The notes beneath the pieces were generated by a model. It was not told the origin of the DNA, did not search any database, and worked only from the letters and a program-made list of their open reading frames with translations. This document shows positions 3,083 to 43,230 of a DNA stretch of 64,000 nucleotides, in pieces. Both the position numbers and the translations under genes were made by a program. The DNA is from an uncultured Acidobacteriaceae bacterium (GTDB taxonomy: Bacteria; Acidobacteriota; Terriglobia; Terriglobales; Acidobacteriaceae): assembly GCA_963741395.1 (NCBI GenBank), contig CAVUHV010000001.1, positions 222,826 through 286,825 on the forward strand, in the 5' to 3' direction. Every line of letters starts with the position of its first letter. Within the stretch, counting starts at the first letter, position 1.

Positions 3083-4309
3083 CTAGTCAAACATTTCGTC
3101 ACCGGTAGGTTCGTAGAGAGGAACGTTGTTCATGGTGTGTCTCAGCTTTGAAAGCGTGTCATACATGCGGCGGCGCGCGCGGCTTTGATTGCCGAGCGGG
3201 CGATGCTCGGGGATGCAGTGCCAAGGATTGTAGGAGAGCTGCCTGGCGAAGTCCAGCTGGGCCTGTGATGCGAATGTCTGCTTCGGAATTCGAAGCGTAG
3301 CGACGGAGCGACGCGGGGAGAGTCTTTCTGGCCAGTACACGGCGTTGTTTTCGAGTGGCATGAGATGGGGATCGGTCTGGAGTTGCACGCGAACGTCGAA
3401 GAAGGCTTCCTCAGTGACCAGCGTGTTTGCCATGGCCTGGCGGAGGTAGTCGTCGGGCGGCCGGAGTGGAAGCCGTGGAACCGGAGTGCGCCGCGAGGTC
3501 CTGGGCCAGAAGGAGTACTGCATCGCCTGGCCTTCTCCTAACAGGTAGGGAACGCAACTGAAGTAGGGGGCTTCGAGCGGACTGCTCTGCGTCTTAATCC
3601 AGAGCCCCTGCATGATGAGGTCAAGGACATGGGAGTTGTGCAGGTTTACGAAATAGAAGATCTGCGCGTTTTTTACGCTCTCAACCTGCAGCTGCGCATT
3701 GGCTTTGGTGTCCGGCGTGACGAAGGTTGGGGTCGAGACGCCGAACATGTCCTGCGTGAACTTCTCTTCTTCCATCAACTTCGGGCCGGGAACCCCCATC
3801 AGCTTTACGCTGATGCTCATGAAGCCTACGTCGTCGATGTCGGGAGTGATGTAGGGACCGGGGCCGGAGAATCGCACCCAGGCTTTGTAGGTGCGTGGCT
3901 CGGTGTAGATGCCGTGACGGAGTTCCGGTACTAGATTGTCGTGCACGATGAATTCGCCGCGCACGATACCGTGAGTCTTGGTATTGCCGCCGCGTTCGTA
4001 GGCGCCCGGCTTCCATAAGCCTCGAAGTTGGGTTTCGAAGCTGTCGATGATCGAGTCGAGGAAGAGCTGTTCGTCGGGCAAAAGCTTTTCTTCGGCAATC
4101 TTCAAGCCTTCGTTTGGGCGACGCAGGTTGATGAGCGCCGTTACAAAGCGCGTGAGCGGATCACGCAAGGTCGCATCGAAGGCGGGACGAAACAGCGGAT
4201 CGAAGCGCCGCTCGAACTGGACCAATTTCGTCGACAGATTGGCGAGCAGGTTCAACAGCGTTGAGCCGGTGTTGGCTTTCGGAATAGGACGATCCGGATT
4301 TGCAGTCAA
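3083..4309 (-). CDS. Short catalase-like heme protein
   Basis: NTKTHGIVRGEF (distal His), WVRFS, LSYNPWH, HRPLG..SRARRRMY (proximal Arg-x3-Tyr); 408 aa. Confidence 0.8.
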   Translation of the reverse strand: MTANPDRPIPKANTGSTLLNLLANLSTKLVQFERRFDPLFRPAFDATLRDPLTRFVTALINLRRPNEGLKIAEEKLLPDEQLFLDSIIDSFETQLRGLWKPGAYERGGNTKTHGIVRGEFIVHDNLVPELRHGIYTEPRTYKAWVRFSGPGPYITPDIDDVGFMSISVKLMGVPGPKLMEEEKFTQDMFGVSTPTFVTPDTKANAQLQVESVKNAQIFYFVNLHNSHVLDLIMQGLWIKTQSSPLEAPYFSCVPYLLGEGQAMQYSFWPRTSRRTPVPRLPLRPPDDYLRQAMANTLVTEEAFFDVRVQLQTDPHLMPLENNAVYWPERLSPRRSVATLRIPKQTFASQAQLDFARQLSYNPWHCIPEHRPLGNQSRARRRMYDTLSKLRHTMNNVPLYEPTGDEMFD

Positions 4310-38888: not shown

Positions 38889-40022
38889 TCATGAACCGCC
38901 GACATCGGCGGCTAAGAGCAGTTCCACCACACGATTATTGGCCTCACGTTTTTCAGGCGACAGTGCTTTACCGTAGACGTTGAAGGTCGTGGCAATCGCG
39001 GAATGCCTCATCAGATCCTTCGTAACGCCCGGCGCTGCCCCCGTGGCGTCGAGCCAGGATCGATATGAGTGCCGAAGGGAATGAAAACCGAGCCCTTCAA
39101 TGCCAATCGCCTCTCCTGCTGGCCGAATCCACCTTTGTTGCAGGCTTGGCGACATGTACGGCATCCCGGTCGCCGGATTCGCAAACAGCCATTGTGAAGT
39201 GGATTGCACCTTCCACGTCAGAAGCAATTCCGCCAGCAATCGCGCGAGCGGCAATTTCGCCTTGGATGAAGTGGTTTTGGTTTCATCAATAGCGCCACGA
39301 TAAGCGCTACGCCGGATGGTGACAGTTGTGTGCTGCCAATCGAAGTCTTCCCATCGCAGGCCAAGGGCCTCACTGACGCGCAGGCCAAGGCACGACATCG
39401 TGATCGCAATCATATTGACGTGCGCCGGCAGGCGACGAACGACTTCGCGGAACTGATCCGGCGACAGCACGACCGCCTCTTTGGTGCGCCTGGTGACGTT
39501 CTTGATCTTGACGATCTCGATAGGATTCCGACGCTCGAGCGGCAGGTACTCCCACAGCGTGGCCAGGTCGAAGAGCTTGTGCATCAAGCTACGCAAGTGT
39601 CCTTTACTCAAGGGGGCAAGGTCGAGAGACTGGAACCATGCGTGAATCTCGGCCGGCCGAATCTCGGATACGACGTGGTTTCCCCACTTAGGACGGAGCC
39701 TCTTGTTGATGATGGATGTGTAGGAGCTCCGCGTCGCGCGCCGTGCGGGTATCTCTTCCGCAATATAACGATCAAGTAATGCATTGAACGTTACGTCATT
39801 GGCCCGGGCGTATTCCGTGCCCTCGTTCAACTTGAGAAGCTGAGCCTCCACCTTTTGCCGGACAGCCTTCTCGGTTTTGTAGATTCTGCCGTCGAAGTAT
39901 TGGCTTCGCAGGACGCGGTCCCCGTCCTGCTCGACGTAATACCGGAACTCCCACGCGAAGCCGTTTGCCCGTTTCACCCGCCGGACTGAACCCTGCTGAT
40001 ACTTGTCCCGACGCACCTTCAT
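38889..40022 (-). CDS. Tyrosine recombinase (phage-type integrase)
   Basis: GLRVSEALGLRW, FHSLRHS, LMRHS, NVY catalytic set intact; adjacent to tRNA-Cys. Confidence 0.95.
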   Translation of the reverse strand: MKVRRDKYQQGSVRRVKRANGFAWEFRYYVEQDGDRVLRSQYFDGRIYKTEKAVRQKVEAQLLKLNEGTEYARANDVTFNALLDRYIAEEIPARRATRSSYTSIINKRLRPKWGNHVVSEIRPAEIHAWFQSLDLAPLSKGHLRSLMHKLFDLATLWEYLPLERRNPIEIVKIKNVTRRTKEAVVLSPDQFREVVRRLPAHVNMIAITMSCLGLRVSEALGLRWEDFDWQHTTVTIRRSAYRGAIDETKTTSSKAKLPLARLLAELLLTWKVQSTSQWLFANPATGMPYMSPSLQQRWIRPAGEAIGIEGLGFHSLRHSYRSWLDATGAAPGVTKDLMRHSAIATTFNVYGKALSPEKREANNRVVELLLAADVGGS

Positions 40023-40121: not shown

Positions 40122-40197
40122 TGGAGCACCGAGAGGGAATTGAACCCTCGAATACTGGTTTTGCAGACCAGCGCGTTAGCCACTTCGCCATCGGTGC
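40122..40197 (-). tRNA. tRNA-Cys (GCA)
   Basis: Cloverleaf GCACCGA/TCGGTGC, anticodon arm CTGGT-CTGCAAA-ACCAG, T-arm GAGGG-TTCAATT-CCCTC, U73 discriminator, encoded CCA. Confidence 0.97.
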
Positions 40198-41201: not shown

Positions 41202-42140
41202 ATGTCAACCCAGCAAGTTCCTGCTACCGCGCATGCAGCTTACGACTTTGCCCAGGTCGATGTCTTCGCGGAGCGCCCGCTTGAGGGCAATCAGCTCGCC
41301 ATATTCTGTGACGGACGCGGTCTTTCGAGCGAGGAGATGCAATCGCTGGCTCGCGAGACGAATCTCTCAGAGACTACGTTCATCCTGCCCCGCGAGACCC
41401 CTTTGGAGCGAGAGTGCGGTGTGCGGGTCCGCATCTTCACAACGCAAGAGGAACTGCCCTTCGCGGGGCACCCGACGCTCGGCACAGCAAGCTGGCTCTA
41501 CTGGAACCACCCCGCGTTTCGGGGAGCCGACGAGATCACGCTCGAACTTGGCGTAGGGCCAATTCCAGTGAGATTTGCTCAGTCAGAGGCCAATAAACAT
41601 GGCGTCTTTGGAACGATGCGGCAGAACAATCCTGTCTTTGGTGTACCTGATGTCAACCATGCTGCTCTCGCCCCCATCCTGCATCTTGCTCTGGACGATC
41701 TCGACCAAAGTCTGCCCGCCCAGATGGTGACAACAGGCAATCCATTCTGTATCGTTCCGCTGCGATCACTCGATGCTGCCTCGCGAGTTGCCCTGCCACA
41801 GAGCGGGGAAGTGCGCGCTTATCTTGAGCGCGCCGGAGCGAAGTTTTTCTACTTCATCACTCGCGCCGATACCGGTTCCGGCGCTGACTGGCATGCAAGG
41901 ATGCAGTTCTACAGCGGCGAAGATCCTGCGACCGGATCAGCAGCAGGACCCGCTATCGCCTATCTTGTGCGTCACGGAGTGGTGCCGAGCGAGAAGACGA
42001 TTGTGATCGAGCAGGGCGTTGAGATGCTTCGCCCAAGCCGCATTCATGTCTCCGCGAAGCTCGCCGGCGGAGTTGTGTCAAATGTGTTCGTCGGCGGGCG
42101 CACCATTCCAGTTGCAACGGGACGGTTTTTCCTGCCGTGA
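41202..42140 (+). CDS. PhzF-family isomerase
   Basis: QVDVFAERPLEGNQL, SETTF, ELPFAGHPTLG, EDPATGSA, EQG.EM.RPS. Confidence 0.92.
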   Translation: MSTQQVPATAHAAYDFAQVDVFAERPLEGNQLAIFCDGRGLSSEEMQSLARETNLSETTFILPRETPLERECGVRVRIFTTQEELPFAGHPTLGTASWLYWNHPAFRGADEITLELGVGPIPVRFAQSEANKHGVFGTMRQNNPVFGVPDVNHAALAPILHLALDDLDQSLPAQMVTTGNPFCIVPLRSLDAASRVALPQSGEVRAYLERAGAKFFYFITRADTGSGADWHARMQFYSGEDPATGSAAGPAIAYLVRHGVVPSEKTIVIEQGVEMLRPSRIHVSAKLAGGVVSNVFVGGRTIPVATGRFFLP

Positions 42141-42426
42141 TGCACGTGTTTTCAACAGAGCTGTAACATTAATCTCCTGTAATGGCGGGGCTTTGGAAAG
42201 AACGGTGGATGTGCAAGGGCTAATATTGCGCATCTTCGCTGGAACTTCGCCATTGCCAAGCGGGGCAACTCTTCATACTCTTGGCAAGCGTCGATGGTGA
42301 ATTGCATGGAACATGCGGTCGCTGCCGACGGGAATTCTTTCGCCTGTTTTTACGACAACCTGAGTTGAGAGACGCTTGACTGTCATACAGTCACGGCTCC
42401 CTGCGCGCCTATCGCTGCCTGCAAAC

Positions 42427-42792
42427 GCAGTTGTGGTGTGGCCGGTTTCGCCGGTCCCGTCACTTGCTGTAATCGCGGCATTTGATTCCGGCGCCAGGGA
42501 GATCCGCGGGCAACCTGTGTTGGCAACTGCATCTCTCTCGCCCTCGGTCCGGCAGTCTCGCTTGCCGGGCAGTGGCACTGTTCCCCTTGGGACGGGAAGG
42601 AGAGCTTTGTCTCTCCTGCCCGCTCTTAGGAGAGCAGCTGACCCGCTACGTTTCGGAGAGCACTCTTCCGGACCGAGGGGCATCGTTTGTGAACACCCGG
42701 ACTGGAGACCTCTGCAAACCAGCAGATATCCGGACTGGCTTATCGGCTGGAGCCCATCAACGACGATGGCGTCCGGCAGAAGCGAGACTGCA
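42427..42792 (+). ncRNA. Candidate structured cis-regulatory leader
   Basis: Helices 42541-52/42668-79 (12 bp), 42552-70/42771-91 (19 bp, 2-nt bulge), 42427-34/42523-30, and hairpins at 42593-622, 42622-635, 42754-769. Confidence 0.45.
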
Positions 42793-43230
42793 TTGCGCCC
42801 CAAGAAAACGATCCTCTGCGTAGATGACAACGAACAAGTCCTCTCAGTCCGAACATTTCTCCTCGAAACCCGCGGTTACCGCGTAATCCCAGCTCTGTCA
42901 GCCCCCCAGGCCCTCGAAGTTGTGGAGCAGTCCATTCCCGGATCGCTGGACCTACTGCTATGCGATCTGCTGATGCCGCAGATGGACGGCAACGAACTCG
43001 TCCGCCGCGCCAAACAGCTTCATCCCTCCCTGCCAGCCATGATTGTTTCCGGCACGGTCACTTCGTTCGACCGCGCCTGCTGCGCCGATGTCTTTCTCCC
43101 CAAAGGAGGCTGCTCGCCTGCCGAGATGATCGAGCGCATTCGTGTGCTTGTTGCTCGCAAGCGCGGGCCCAAGAAGGCTCATCCGCTGCAGCATGCCTCA
43201 CATGTCCTCAGCGCTGCCGCTGCTTCGTAG
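42793..43230 (+). CDS. Single-domain response regulator
   Basis: ILCVDDNE, DLLLCDLLMPQMDG, MIVSG, FLPKG; TTG start at 42793 preferred to 42376. Confidence 0.85.
   Translation: MRPKKTILCVDDNEQVLSVRTFLLETRGYRVIPALSAPQALEVVEQSIPGSLDLLLCDLLMPQMDGNELVRRAKQLHPSLPAMIVSGTVTSFDRACCADVFLPKGGCSPAEMIERIRVLVARKRGPKKAHPLQHASHVLSAAAAS

Follow-up and report, generated by a model that had tools for sequence, protein, structure and literature searches.

The window analyzed here is a 64,000-nucleotide (nt) stretch of DNA from an uncultured Acidobacteriaceae bacterium (contig CAVUHV010000001.1, positions 222,826 to 286,825), numbered from its first letter. Between a PhzF-family gene (41202-42140, + strand) and a small gene that encodes only a receiver (REC) domain lies a gap of 652 nt, within which a preliminary description, made from the sequence alone, had placed a large structured leader or noncoding RNA (ncRNA) at 42427-42795, with a long-range helix covering the start region of the downstream gene. 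We found that this stretch forms the 3' two-thirds of a conserved element of about 505 nt with five domains (about 42286-42792, + strand), which is probably a new large cis-acting structured 5' leader of the orphan response regulator mRNA with its own sigma70-type promoter. The presence of a large structured leader or ncRNA is supported by conservation, by 150 covariation-supported pairs, and by transcription in an ortholog, but the switch proposed to be built on the long-range helix is not; the extent first assigned lies inside the element, which reaches ∼140 nt further in the 5' direction.

The downstream protein is a stand-alone receiver-domain response regulator whose relatives are 75 to 93% identical across Edaphobacter, Granulicella, and Tunturiibacter, and a comparison with NCBIfam returned no specific family above the cut-off. 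A genome scan with this protein yielded 80 orthologous loci from these three genera and from unnamed Acidobacteriaceae metagenome-assembled genomes (MAGs); alignment A1 and the averaged pair probabilities covered 73 of the orthologs. The choice of TTG at 42793 as the start codon was borne out, with the aligned column being ATG or TTG in 80 of 80 orthologs (ATG in most) and protein similarity beginning there, and neither the in-frame ATG at 42766 nor the open frame from 42376 was conserved among the orthologs. The gene order peroxiredoxin (-), PhzF (+), leader, regulator (+), and RecG (-) is kept in 66 to 77 of the 80 loci, and no histidine kinase occurs among those neighbor genes of the regulator at the 80 loci. 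For most of these loci, the ∼600 nt upstream of the regulator are nearly equal in length and 66 to 76% identical to the window, laid out as invariant blocks between variable stretches and stems without codon periodicity; overall, the leader is conserved about as well as the neighboring protein genes. This upstream conservation extends over more than 70 Acidobacteriaceae genomes and many soil and peat metagenome contigs. The leader always adjoins the regulator at a fixed spacing, and 12 nt separate the end of domain 5 from the start codon.

When metagenomes were scanned with a 20-base pattern taken from the block of highest conservation, at least 120 matches were obtained, of which 80 were retrieved; the regulator was located 300 to 700 nt downstream in 53 of these 80, and domain 3 was present in 52. 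Most of the others were truncated by contig ends or resembled chance matches; approximately 18, from human-gut, marine, and other samples, had neither domain 3 nor the regulator and would be consistent with a chance occurrence of the 20-base pattern. Within the ortholog set, a divergent clade (L059, L069, L072, L077, and L080) has a leader ∼120 nt longer (∼620 nt), with the domain 1 region expanded and the CUUUCGCC block (element Z) lost; the promoter, the apex of domain 3, the loop of domain 4, and elements A, B, and C are all retained. Such a clade is useful for telling the essential from the dispensable parts of the leader. In other taxa seen in peat metatranscriptomes (contigs on L048 2747-2805), only the first ∼50 nt of the regulator coding sequence match, and a short A-rich leader with a canonical AAGGAG Shine-Dalgarno (SD) sequence replaces the large one. 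The regulator gene thus exists without the large leader outside the clade.

The fold was derived from per-sequence base-pair probabilities that were averaged over the 73 orthologs and projected on a structure-blind MAFFT alignment. RNAalifold, when applied to the raw MAFFT alignment of 806 columns, yielded no more than 41 pairs owing to misalignment of the variable stems, and it was replaced by the averaged probabilities and, for domain 3, a covariance model (R1). Of the 150 pairs in the five domains, 109 exhibit double-sided (compensatory) changes, 83 to 84% of the alignment cells are paired compared to 27 to 52% in slid controls, and none of 500 shuffles reached the observed scores. The same held for the parts. 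In domain 2, 82.8% of the cells are paired (32-47% in slid controls) and 39 of 55 pairs are compensatory; the corresponding values for domains 1, 4, and 5 together are 83.6% (27-51%) and 40 of 49, and those for domain 3 are 84.4% (37-52%) and 30 of 46, with the domain 3 counts taken from the R1 alignment, which leans toward the model. For each of these sets, 0 of 500 shuffles attained the scores. The whole leader folds with z = -5.4, and R1 finds exactly one strong match per locus, on the strand of the gene (+). Both conservation and covariation of the leader, which had been named as tests of the original proposal, are therefore present. The features are collected in Table 1.

Table 1 Features of the leader, its promoter region, and the regulator gene in the window.
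Feature	Position	Strand	Details
Conserved box CGGTGGATGTGCAAG, candidate transcription-factor site	42203-42217	+	At least 90% conserved columns (A1); ∼70-85 bp upstream of the predicted start site
Direct repeats TTCGC-N6-TTCGC (11-bp register), abutting the -35 element	42235-42250	+	Invariant columns in 73 orthologs
Predicted sigma70-type promoter	42253-42281	+	-35 TTGCCA 42253-58; 17-nt spacer; -10 TACTCT 42276-81
Domain 1, 5'-terminal hairpin	42290-42329	+	18 pairs, 14/18 compensatory; from averaged pair probabilities
Joiner, mostly unpaired, conserved	42337-42366	+	Element Z CUUUCGCCU (42337-45), then UGUUUUUACGACAACCUGAG
Element A GAGUUGAGAGA	42362-42372	+	Contains GAGAGA 42367-72
Domain 2, branched, ∼170 nt	42367-42537	+	55 pairs; closed by invariant GAGAGA (42367-72)/UCUCUC (42532-37)
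Element B UCUCUCUCGC	42532-42541	+	3' strand of the domain 2 closing helix; UCUCGC complementary to GCGAGA 42782-87
Domain 3, rod-like stem-loop, ∼140 nt	42541-42680	+	46 pairs; basal helix 42541-53/42667-80; apical AGGAGAG 42598-604/CUCUCCU 42611-17
5' arm of the 19-bp helix, CU-rich, anti-SD-like	42552-42570	+	Domain 3 internal loop and second helix; complementary to 42771-91
Domain 4, hairpin	42698-42738	+	17 pairs, 14/17 compensatory; apical CUGC-AAACCA-GCAG
Domain 5	42743-42780	+	Helix 42743-51/42773-80 around hairpin 42753-58/42765-70; 12/14 compensatory
Element C, ribosome-binding region	42782-42795	+	GCGAGA 42782-87 (invariant core GAGA 42784-87), spacer, TTG 42793-95
Stand-alone receiver-domain response regulator	42793-43230	+	145 amino acids; sole Pfam domain PF00072

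Element Z is identical in 72 of the 73 orthologs. Domain 2 branches at a junction and carries a small side hairpin, its invariant closing helix is extended by covarying pairs, and a conserved joiner, GGCAACCUG, occupies 42509-17. Each pairing that had been described from the sequence was recovered. The perfect complementarity of 42541-52 with 42668-79 turned out to be the base of conserved domain 3, where the helix extends to 14 pairs (9 of 14 compensatory, 90% of cells paired) with clear U-A, U-G, and C-G exchanges. The heptamer CTCTCCT (42611-17) does face two AGGAGAG copies (beginning at 42598 and 42628), as had been stated, but the two are not equal partners; only 42598-604 is conserved in that role. 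The motif GCAA(A)CC(U/A)GC occurs twice in the leader, in the domain 2 joiner GGCAACCUG (42509-42517) and at the domain 4 apex CUGCAAACCAGCAG (42714-42725), nearly invariant at both sites, and it may be a protein-binding or tertiary-contact element.

A generic consensus promoter scan made no call at the leader promoter because its -10 element matches only three of the six consensus positions. We infer this promoter from conservation, backed by RNA contig starts in L072: the TTGC and TA...T columns are invariant while the spacer is variable, and in the divergent orthologs this motif also delimits the longer leaders (∼620 nt) on their 5' side. The predicted start of transcription is at about 42285-42289. 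Upstream of the promoter, the full TTCGC-N6-TTCGC pattern is unique in the 64-kb window, against 0.03 matches expected by chance, and these repeats constitute a candidate activator site. The CGGTGGATGnGCAAG box is the conserved box that precedes the repeats; together, box and repeats look like candidate sites of a transcription factor acting on the leader promoter.

The evidence for transcription comes from Logan metatranscriptome contigs that align to the divergent ortholog L072, rather than from the organism of the window. No RNA run containing the window sequence was found, only soil DNA. For strain TAA 166, the RNA search returned only two runs, both small, dating from 2013, and of unspecified kind. 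The peat metatranscriptomes matched only the L072 clade; for the main-clade locus L048, the same runs matched only the conserved coding start, and these matches derived from other taxa. On L072, four runs have zero depth upstream of the predicted start (∼3399), one contig begins at 3399 (4 nt after the -10 element), and another has an adapter junction at 3412 (17 nt after it); the RNA contigs thus start upstream of the equivalent of 42570, a position that had been named as a test for the start site. Contigs 3457-4132 and 3758-4156 cross the start codon at 4022. The depth over the domain 2 region (3511-3706) was ∼8000 in one run (X30) and 150 to 800 in others, compared to about 20 to 190 over domains 4 and 5 and 0 to 150 over the coding region; within X30, the values were ∼8000 for domain 2, 65 to 190 for domains 4 and 5, and 7 to 150 for the coding region, and similar gradients were seen in X31, X34, and X43. 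The high-depth contigs from several runs and strains begin at 3505-3511 (window ∼42350-42360), in the conserved single-stranded UGACAA joiner 5' of domain 2. This shared start suggests an endonucleolytic processing site that generates an abundant domain 2 RNA. We conclude that the L072 leader is transcribed contiguously with the coding region and that RNA of domain 2, together with part of domain 3, is far more abundant than that of the coding region, the depth over domain 2 being tens to hundreds of times greater.

Domain 3 was rejected as a conserved intrinsic terminator: after it, a run of at least four T occurs in 19 of the 73 orthologs and at least four T within 8 nt in 37 of the 73, the U-tract being found in about half of the orthologs and offset by ∼3 nt. 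The sites that a terminator tool reported in the window were likewise all weak and not in excess of chance expectation. The U-rich tract (e.g., CAAUUUUGAAC) after the GC-rich base of domain 3, at 42680-42690, may serve as a weak, lineage-dependent pause or termination signal.

No short elements are more conserved than the four designated Z, A, B, and C, which are alternately pyrimidine- and purine-rich. Element B can pair with A to close domain 2 or with C at the ribosome-binding region, and the two pairings are mutually exclusive with nearly equal mean duplex energies (A:B, -11.4 kcal/mol; B:C, -9.9 kcal/mol). The B:C pairing is possible in 89% of cells compared to 23 to 51% in slid controls, with invariant columns that carry no covariation signal. 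In the minimum free energy structure of the window, the SD sequence and start codon (42784-95) pair with 42524-35. The ensembles give the SD columns a total pairing probability of about 0.45 to 0.8 with no fixed partner. Judged from these sequence features, control of ribosome access is the most likely mechanism, and a translational switch is plausible, with the other conserved CU-rich elements as candidate anti-SD partners. In the mechanism that we propose, the invariant GA-rich SD/start segment (C) would pair with upstream CU-rich segments. Element B, when not closing domain 2 with A, would occlude C, and in this genome the domain 3 internal loop might do so alternatively. If folding kinetics, a ligand, or a protein led to the formation or stabilization of A:B, the ribosome-binding site would be left free, whereas opening of domain 2 would occlude it. 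An endonucleolytic cut in the single-stranded joiner upstream of domain 2 would release an abundant, stable fragment of domain 2 (with or without domain 3), and such processing may uncouple the levels of leader and mRNA.

Several observations weigh against a cis-acting leader that gates translation. The SD sequence and start codon are unpaired in the covariation-supported consensus, so the leader might not act on translation, and the invariance of A, B, and C places their alternative pairings beyond the reach of covariation. Complementarity between CU-rich and GA-rich segments nearly follows from composition. Elements B and C are ∼250 nt apart with three domains between them, an arrangement that is unusual for a simple expression platform, and action in cis on regulator output is something that we infer. 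The RNA contigs derive from a divergent ortholog and are directionless, their depth is a poor measure of expression, and their ends can be assembly artifacts. Low-depth contigs end at or cross the promoter in X25 (3242-3392), X28 (3290-3451, a divergent contig), and X32 (3340-3588), making some phzF read-through, or DNA, possible. Finally, the excess of domain 2 fits a stable ncRNA with its own function equally well.

Other readings of the region were weighed against the same data. The long-range helix between 42552-42570 and 42771-42791 has the form originally described (blocks of 12 and 7 bp separated by a 2-nt bulge, with the end 1 nt short of the TTG), and the CCGGCA/TGCCGG hairpin that had been thought to compete with it is possible at 42549-68. 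In a switch or pseudoknot centered on this helix, the SD sequence and start codon would be sequestered by the internal loop of domain 3. The duplex energy of -35.0 kcal/mol, compared to -16.3 ± 3.4 kcal/mol for shuffled arms (z of about -5.5) and -25.5 kcal/mol for the best other of 78 leader segments, shows that in this genome the complementarity is not due to chance; it ranks third or better as a partner in 44% of the orthologs, 69% of cells can pair versus 31 to 41% in slid controls, forcing the helix costs only ∼6 of 236 kcal/mol (within model error), and pairing of an internal loop with the 3' tail is topologically feasible as a pseudoknot. Its covariation, however, is no better than that of shuffles (350 of 500 reach the observed value), it is the best partner of the ribosome-binding segment in only 23% of the orthologs, and variants of that segment such as AAGAGAG occur without compensation in the loop. 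The pairing drops to the control level in distant orthologs, which have short GGCCGCUUUGGCCGG loops, and amounts to only -19 kcal/mol in the closest available relative (L006). The helix also clashes with covarying helices of domains 3 and 5, since the CCGGC of its 3' arm covaries with a local domain 5 partner and the GCCGG of its 5' arm pairs inside domain 3, and its equilibrium probability is about 0 in the ensemble of the window itself. A switch on the 19-bp helix with the competing 12-bp helix and hairpin is thus unsupported as a conserved feature, and we consider it unlikely as the core of the system; the helix may instead be a lineage-specific reinforcement of a possible alternative pairing. 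Micro-variation in soil contigs of 95 to 97% identity consists mostly of transitions, and the C>T changes at 42550 and 42553 retain G-U pairing and do not separate the competing helices. It is scarcely credible that the region encodes a conserved upstream peptide or an N-terminal extension of the regulator (frame 42376-43230, or from ATG 42766). The window does keep the longer frame, 42376-43230, open and public gene calls of 154 to 262 amino acids exist for homologs, but the orthologs have stops in all six frames, their region lengths differ by non-multiples of three, and no upstream open reading frame (ORF) with a conserved frame or a shared start/stop pair occurs among them, from which we conclude that the leader is noncoding. 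The upstream frame (42376-42792) whose coding nature had been left as a test is accordingly not conserved, protein homology sets in only at the TTG/ATG column, and conservation takes the form of blocks and covarying stems rather than codon periodicity. Many public regulator calls (P0012, P0019, P0025, and others) exceed the ∼145 residues expected and reach into the noncoding leader because GC-rich sequence keeps frames open, and the 284-residue ORF of the window itself is the same kind of annotation artifact; many database proteins are wrongly lengthened by 9 to 117 residues and call for correction. Very improbable, too, are readings in which the RNA comes from the minus strand or the element works at the level of DNA, for instance as an array of protein-binding sites or a mobile repeat. 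The minus strand does fold well (z = -4.8), weak reverse-strand R1 matches overlap the same sites, and the contigs are without direction. Against this, the + strand fold is 14 kcal/mol more stable, and G-U cells exceed A-C cells (11.0% versus 4.6% in the MAFFT alignment, or 2.4 to 1) with several G-U pairs invariant, each of which would be an A-C mismatch on the other strand; both features indicate the + strand. The orientation of the promoter and the fixed join to the start codon point the same way, as does the adapter orientation at three contig ends, given the assumed deoxyuridine triphosphate (dUTP)-stranded libraries, and compensatory changes speak for a constraint on RNA rather than DNA. 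Since each genome stretch carries a single copy of the element, we rejected an origin from a repeat or mobile element.

Two further readings accept the RNA and its strand and differ about what it does. That domain 2 is a riboswitch aptamer for a metabolite or ion, with A:B as a P1-like switch helix that also supplies the anti-SD sequence through its 3' strand, appears doubtful to us. Its architecture would suit that role, with an invariant junction, variable covarying peripheral stems, an invariant closing helix with a covarying extension, and SD complementarity in the 3' strand of that helix, and the accumulation of domain 2 recalls terminated or processed riboswitch fragments; yet there is no similarity to an Rfam riboswitch at E ≤ 10, nothing about the regulated gene hints at a ligand, the SD sequence lies 250 nt and three conserved domains downstream, and domains 1, 3, 4, and 5 are left unexplained. 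A more serious possibility, though still a tentative one, is a stable large ncRNA, in which processing or early termination would release domain 2 (with or without domain 3) as the functional product, possibly trans-acting or protein-binding, and the regulator would simply share the transcript, comparable to 6S RNA cut from the ssrS-ygfA transcript or to small RNAs (sRNAs) derived from 5' untranslated regions (UTRs). The X30 depth of up to ∼8000 for domain 2 against 7 to 150 for the coding region, the start at L072 3505-3511 shared by contigs of several runs and strains, and junction positions such as GGCAACCUG, with an invariance typical of contacts in tertiary structure or with proteins, all favor it. 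The element is nevertheless always fused at a fixed spacing to the regulator start, contigs join leader to coding region, no conserved intrinsic terminator follows domain 3 (at least four T in about a quarter), and the depth of assembled contigs is unreliable. A function of the stable fragment is compatible with a cis role and not exclusive of it. We therefore raise, as a conjecture, a dual-function class of 500 to 630 nt that would combine a cis gate on regulator translation, which might use the domain 2 junction to sense a ligand, a protein, or a physical cue, with a processed trans-acting domain 2 (with or without domain 3). If this is true, the released domain 2 would be one of the more abundant non-ribosomal Acidobacteriaceae RNAs in peat.

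For the cis-acting leader that we favor, no known family could be named. At the Rfam 15 gathering threshold, only a tRNA-Cys passes in the window and only tRNAs in 12 orthologous loci, in agreement with the earlier failure to recognize an Rfam family; relaxing the threshold to E ≤ 10 over 42100-42900 added five noise matches of 11 to 17 bits, compared to gathering scores of 31 to 97. Literature searches likewise turned up no earlier account of the leader, neither in papers on Acidobacteria RNA motifs nor in recent genome-wide ncRNA surveys. We conclude that it is a new RNA family, a structured mRNA leader with a real chance of being more; of the hallmarks of such leaders, co-transcription with the downstream gene was found in the ortholog L072 and compensatory structure was found across the alignment. 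Elsewhere in the window, a tyrosine-integrase-like ORF (38889-40022, -) adjoins the tRNA-Cys gene (40122-40197, -). This tRNA is conserved in the orthologous loci, and the integrase-like ORF may lie at the boundary of an integrated element. The Acidobacteriaceae belong to the most abundant and active bacteria of soil and peat, and to our knowledge their gene regulation is almost unstudied.

The closest functional parallels are long 5' UTRs that occlude the ribosome-binding site, such as the rpoS leader of E. coli (about 570 nt), and the P1/anti-SD logic of riboswitches. The rpoS leader and the present one are both leaders of several hundred nucleotides on the mRNA of a regulatory protein, with their own promoter downstream of a neighbor gene, and in both, upstream segments can pair with the SD sequence and start codon so that translation depends on refolding (here a prediction). 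Unlike the rpoS leader, with which it shares no sequence or model homology, the present one has five domains kept by family-wide covariation, an occluding partner that is only a candidate, one domain that accumulates far above the coding region, and no known link to an sRNA or Hfq. Riboswitches with a P1/anti-SD design also place upstream of a gene a junction domain closed by a helix with an SD-complementary 3' strand, but the leader is three to five times their typical size, its SD sequence is 250 nt from the putative switch helix, and it has no Rfam match. Similarly, 6S RNA (SsrS, from the ssrS-ygfA transcript) is an abundant RNA of ∼200 nt with long helical arms that is processed from the 5' part of a protein-gene transcript. 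Identity with 6S RNA was rejected, as no 6S model matched at E ≤ 10 and domain 2 is branched rather than a rod with a central bubble; domain 2 moreover lies within a larger conserved leader. The Acidobacteria motifs Acido-1, Acido-Lenti-1, and nadA (the NAD+-I riboswitch) were found by comparative genomics of intergenic regions and are all in Rfam (PMC2864571, PMC6859854). They come from the same phylum and the same kind of search but differ from the leader in sequence, structure, and gene association (the nadA motif lies upstream of nadA), and none of them matches it. With OLE, GOLLD, HEARO, ROOL, and raiA the leader shares a length of ∼500 nt, multiple covarying domains, a restricted phylogenetic range, and high RNA abundance, whereas those RNAs are mostly free-standing genes and the leader, again without an Rfam match to any of them, is fused to a start codon and transcribed into the coding region. 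Its size, covariation, abundance, and absence from Rfam rank it with the few large bacterial RNAs (OLE, ROOL, GOLLD, and HEARO) that opened new biology, and its link to just one orphan receiver protein, itself very conserved, gives direct access to an unknown signaling pathway.

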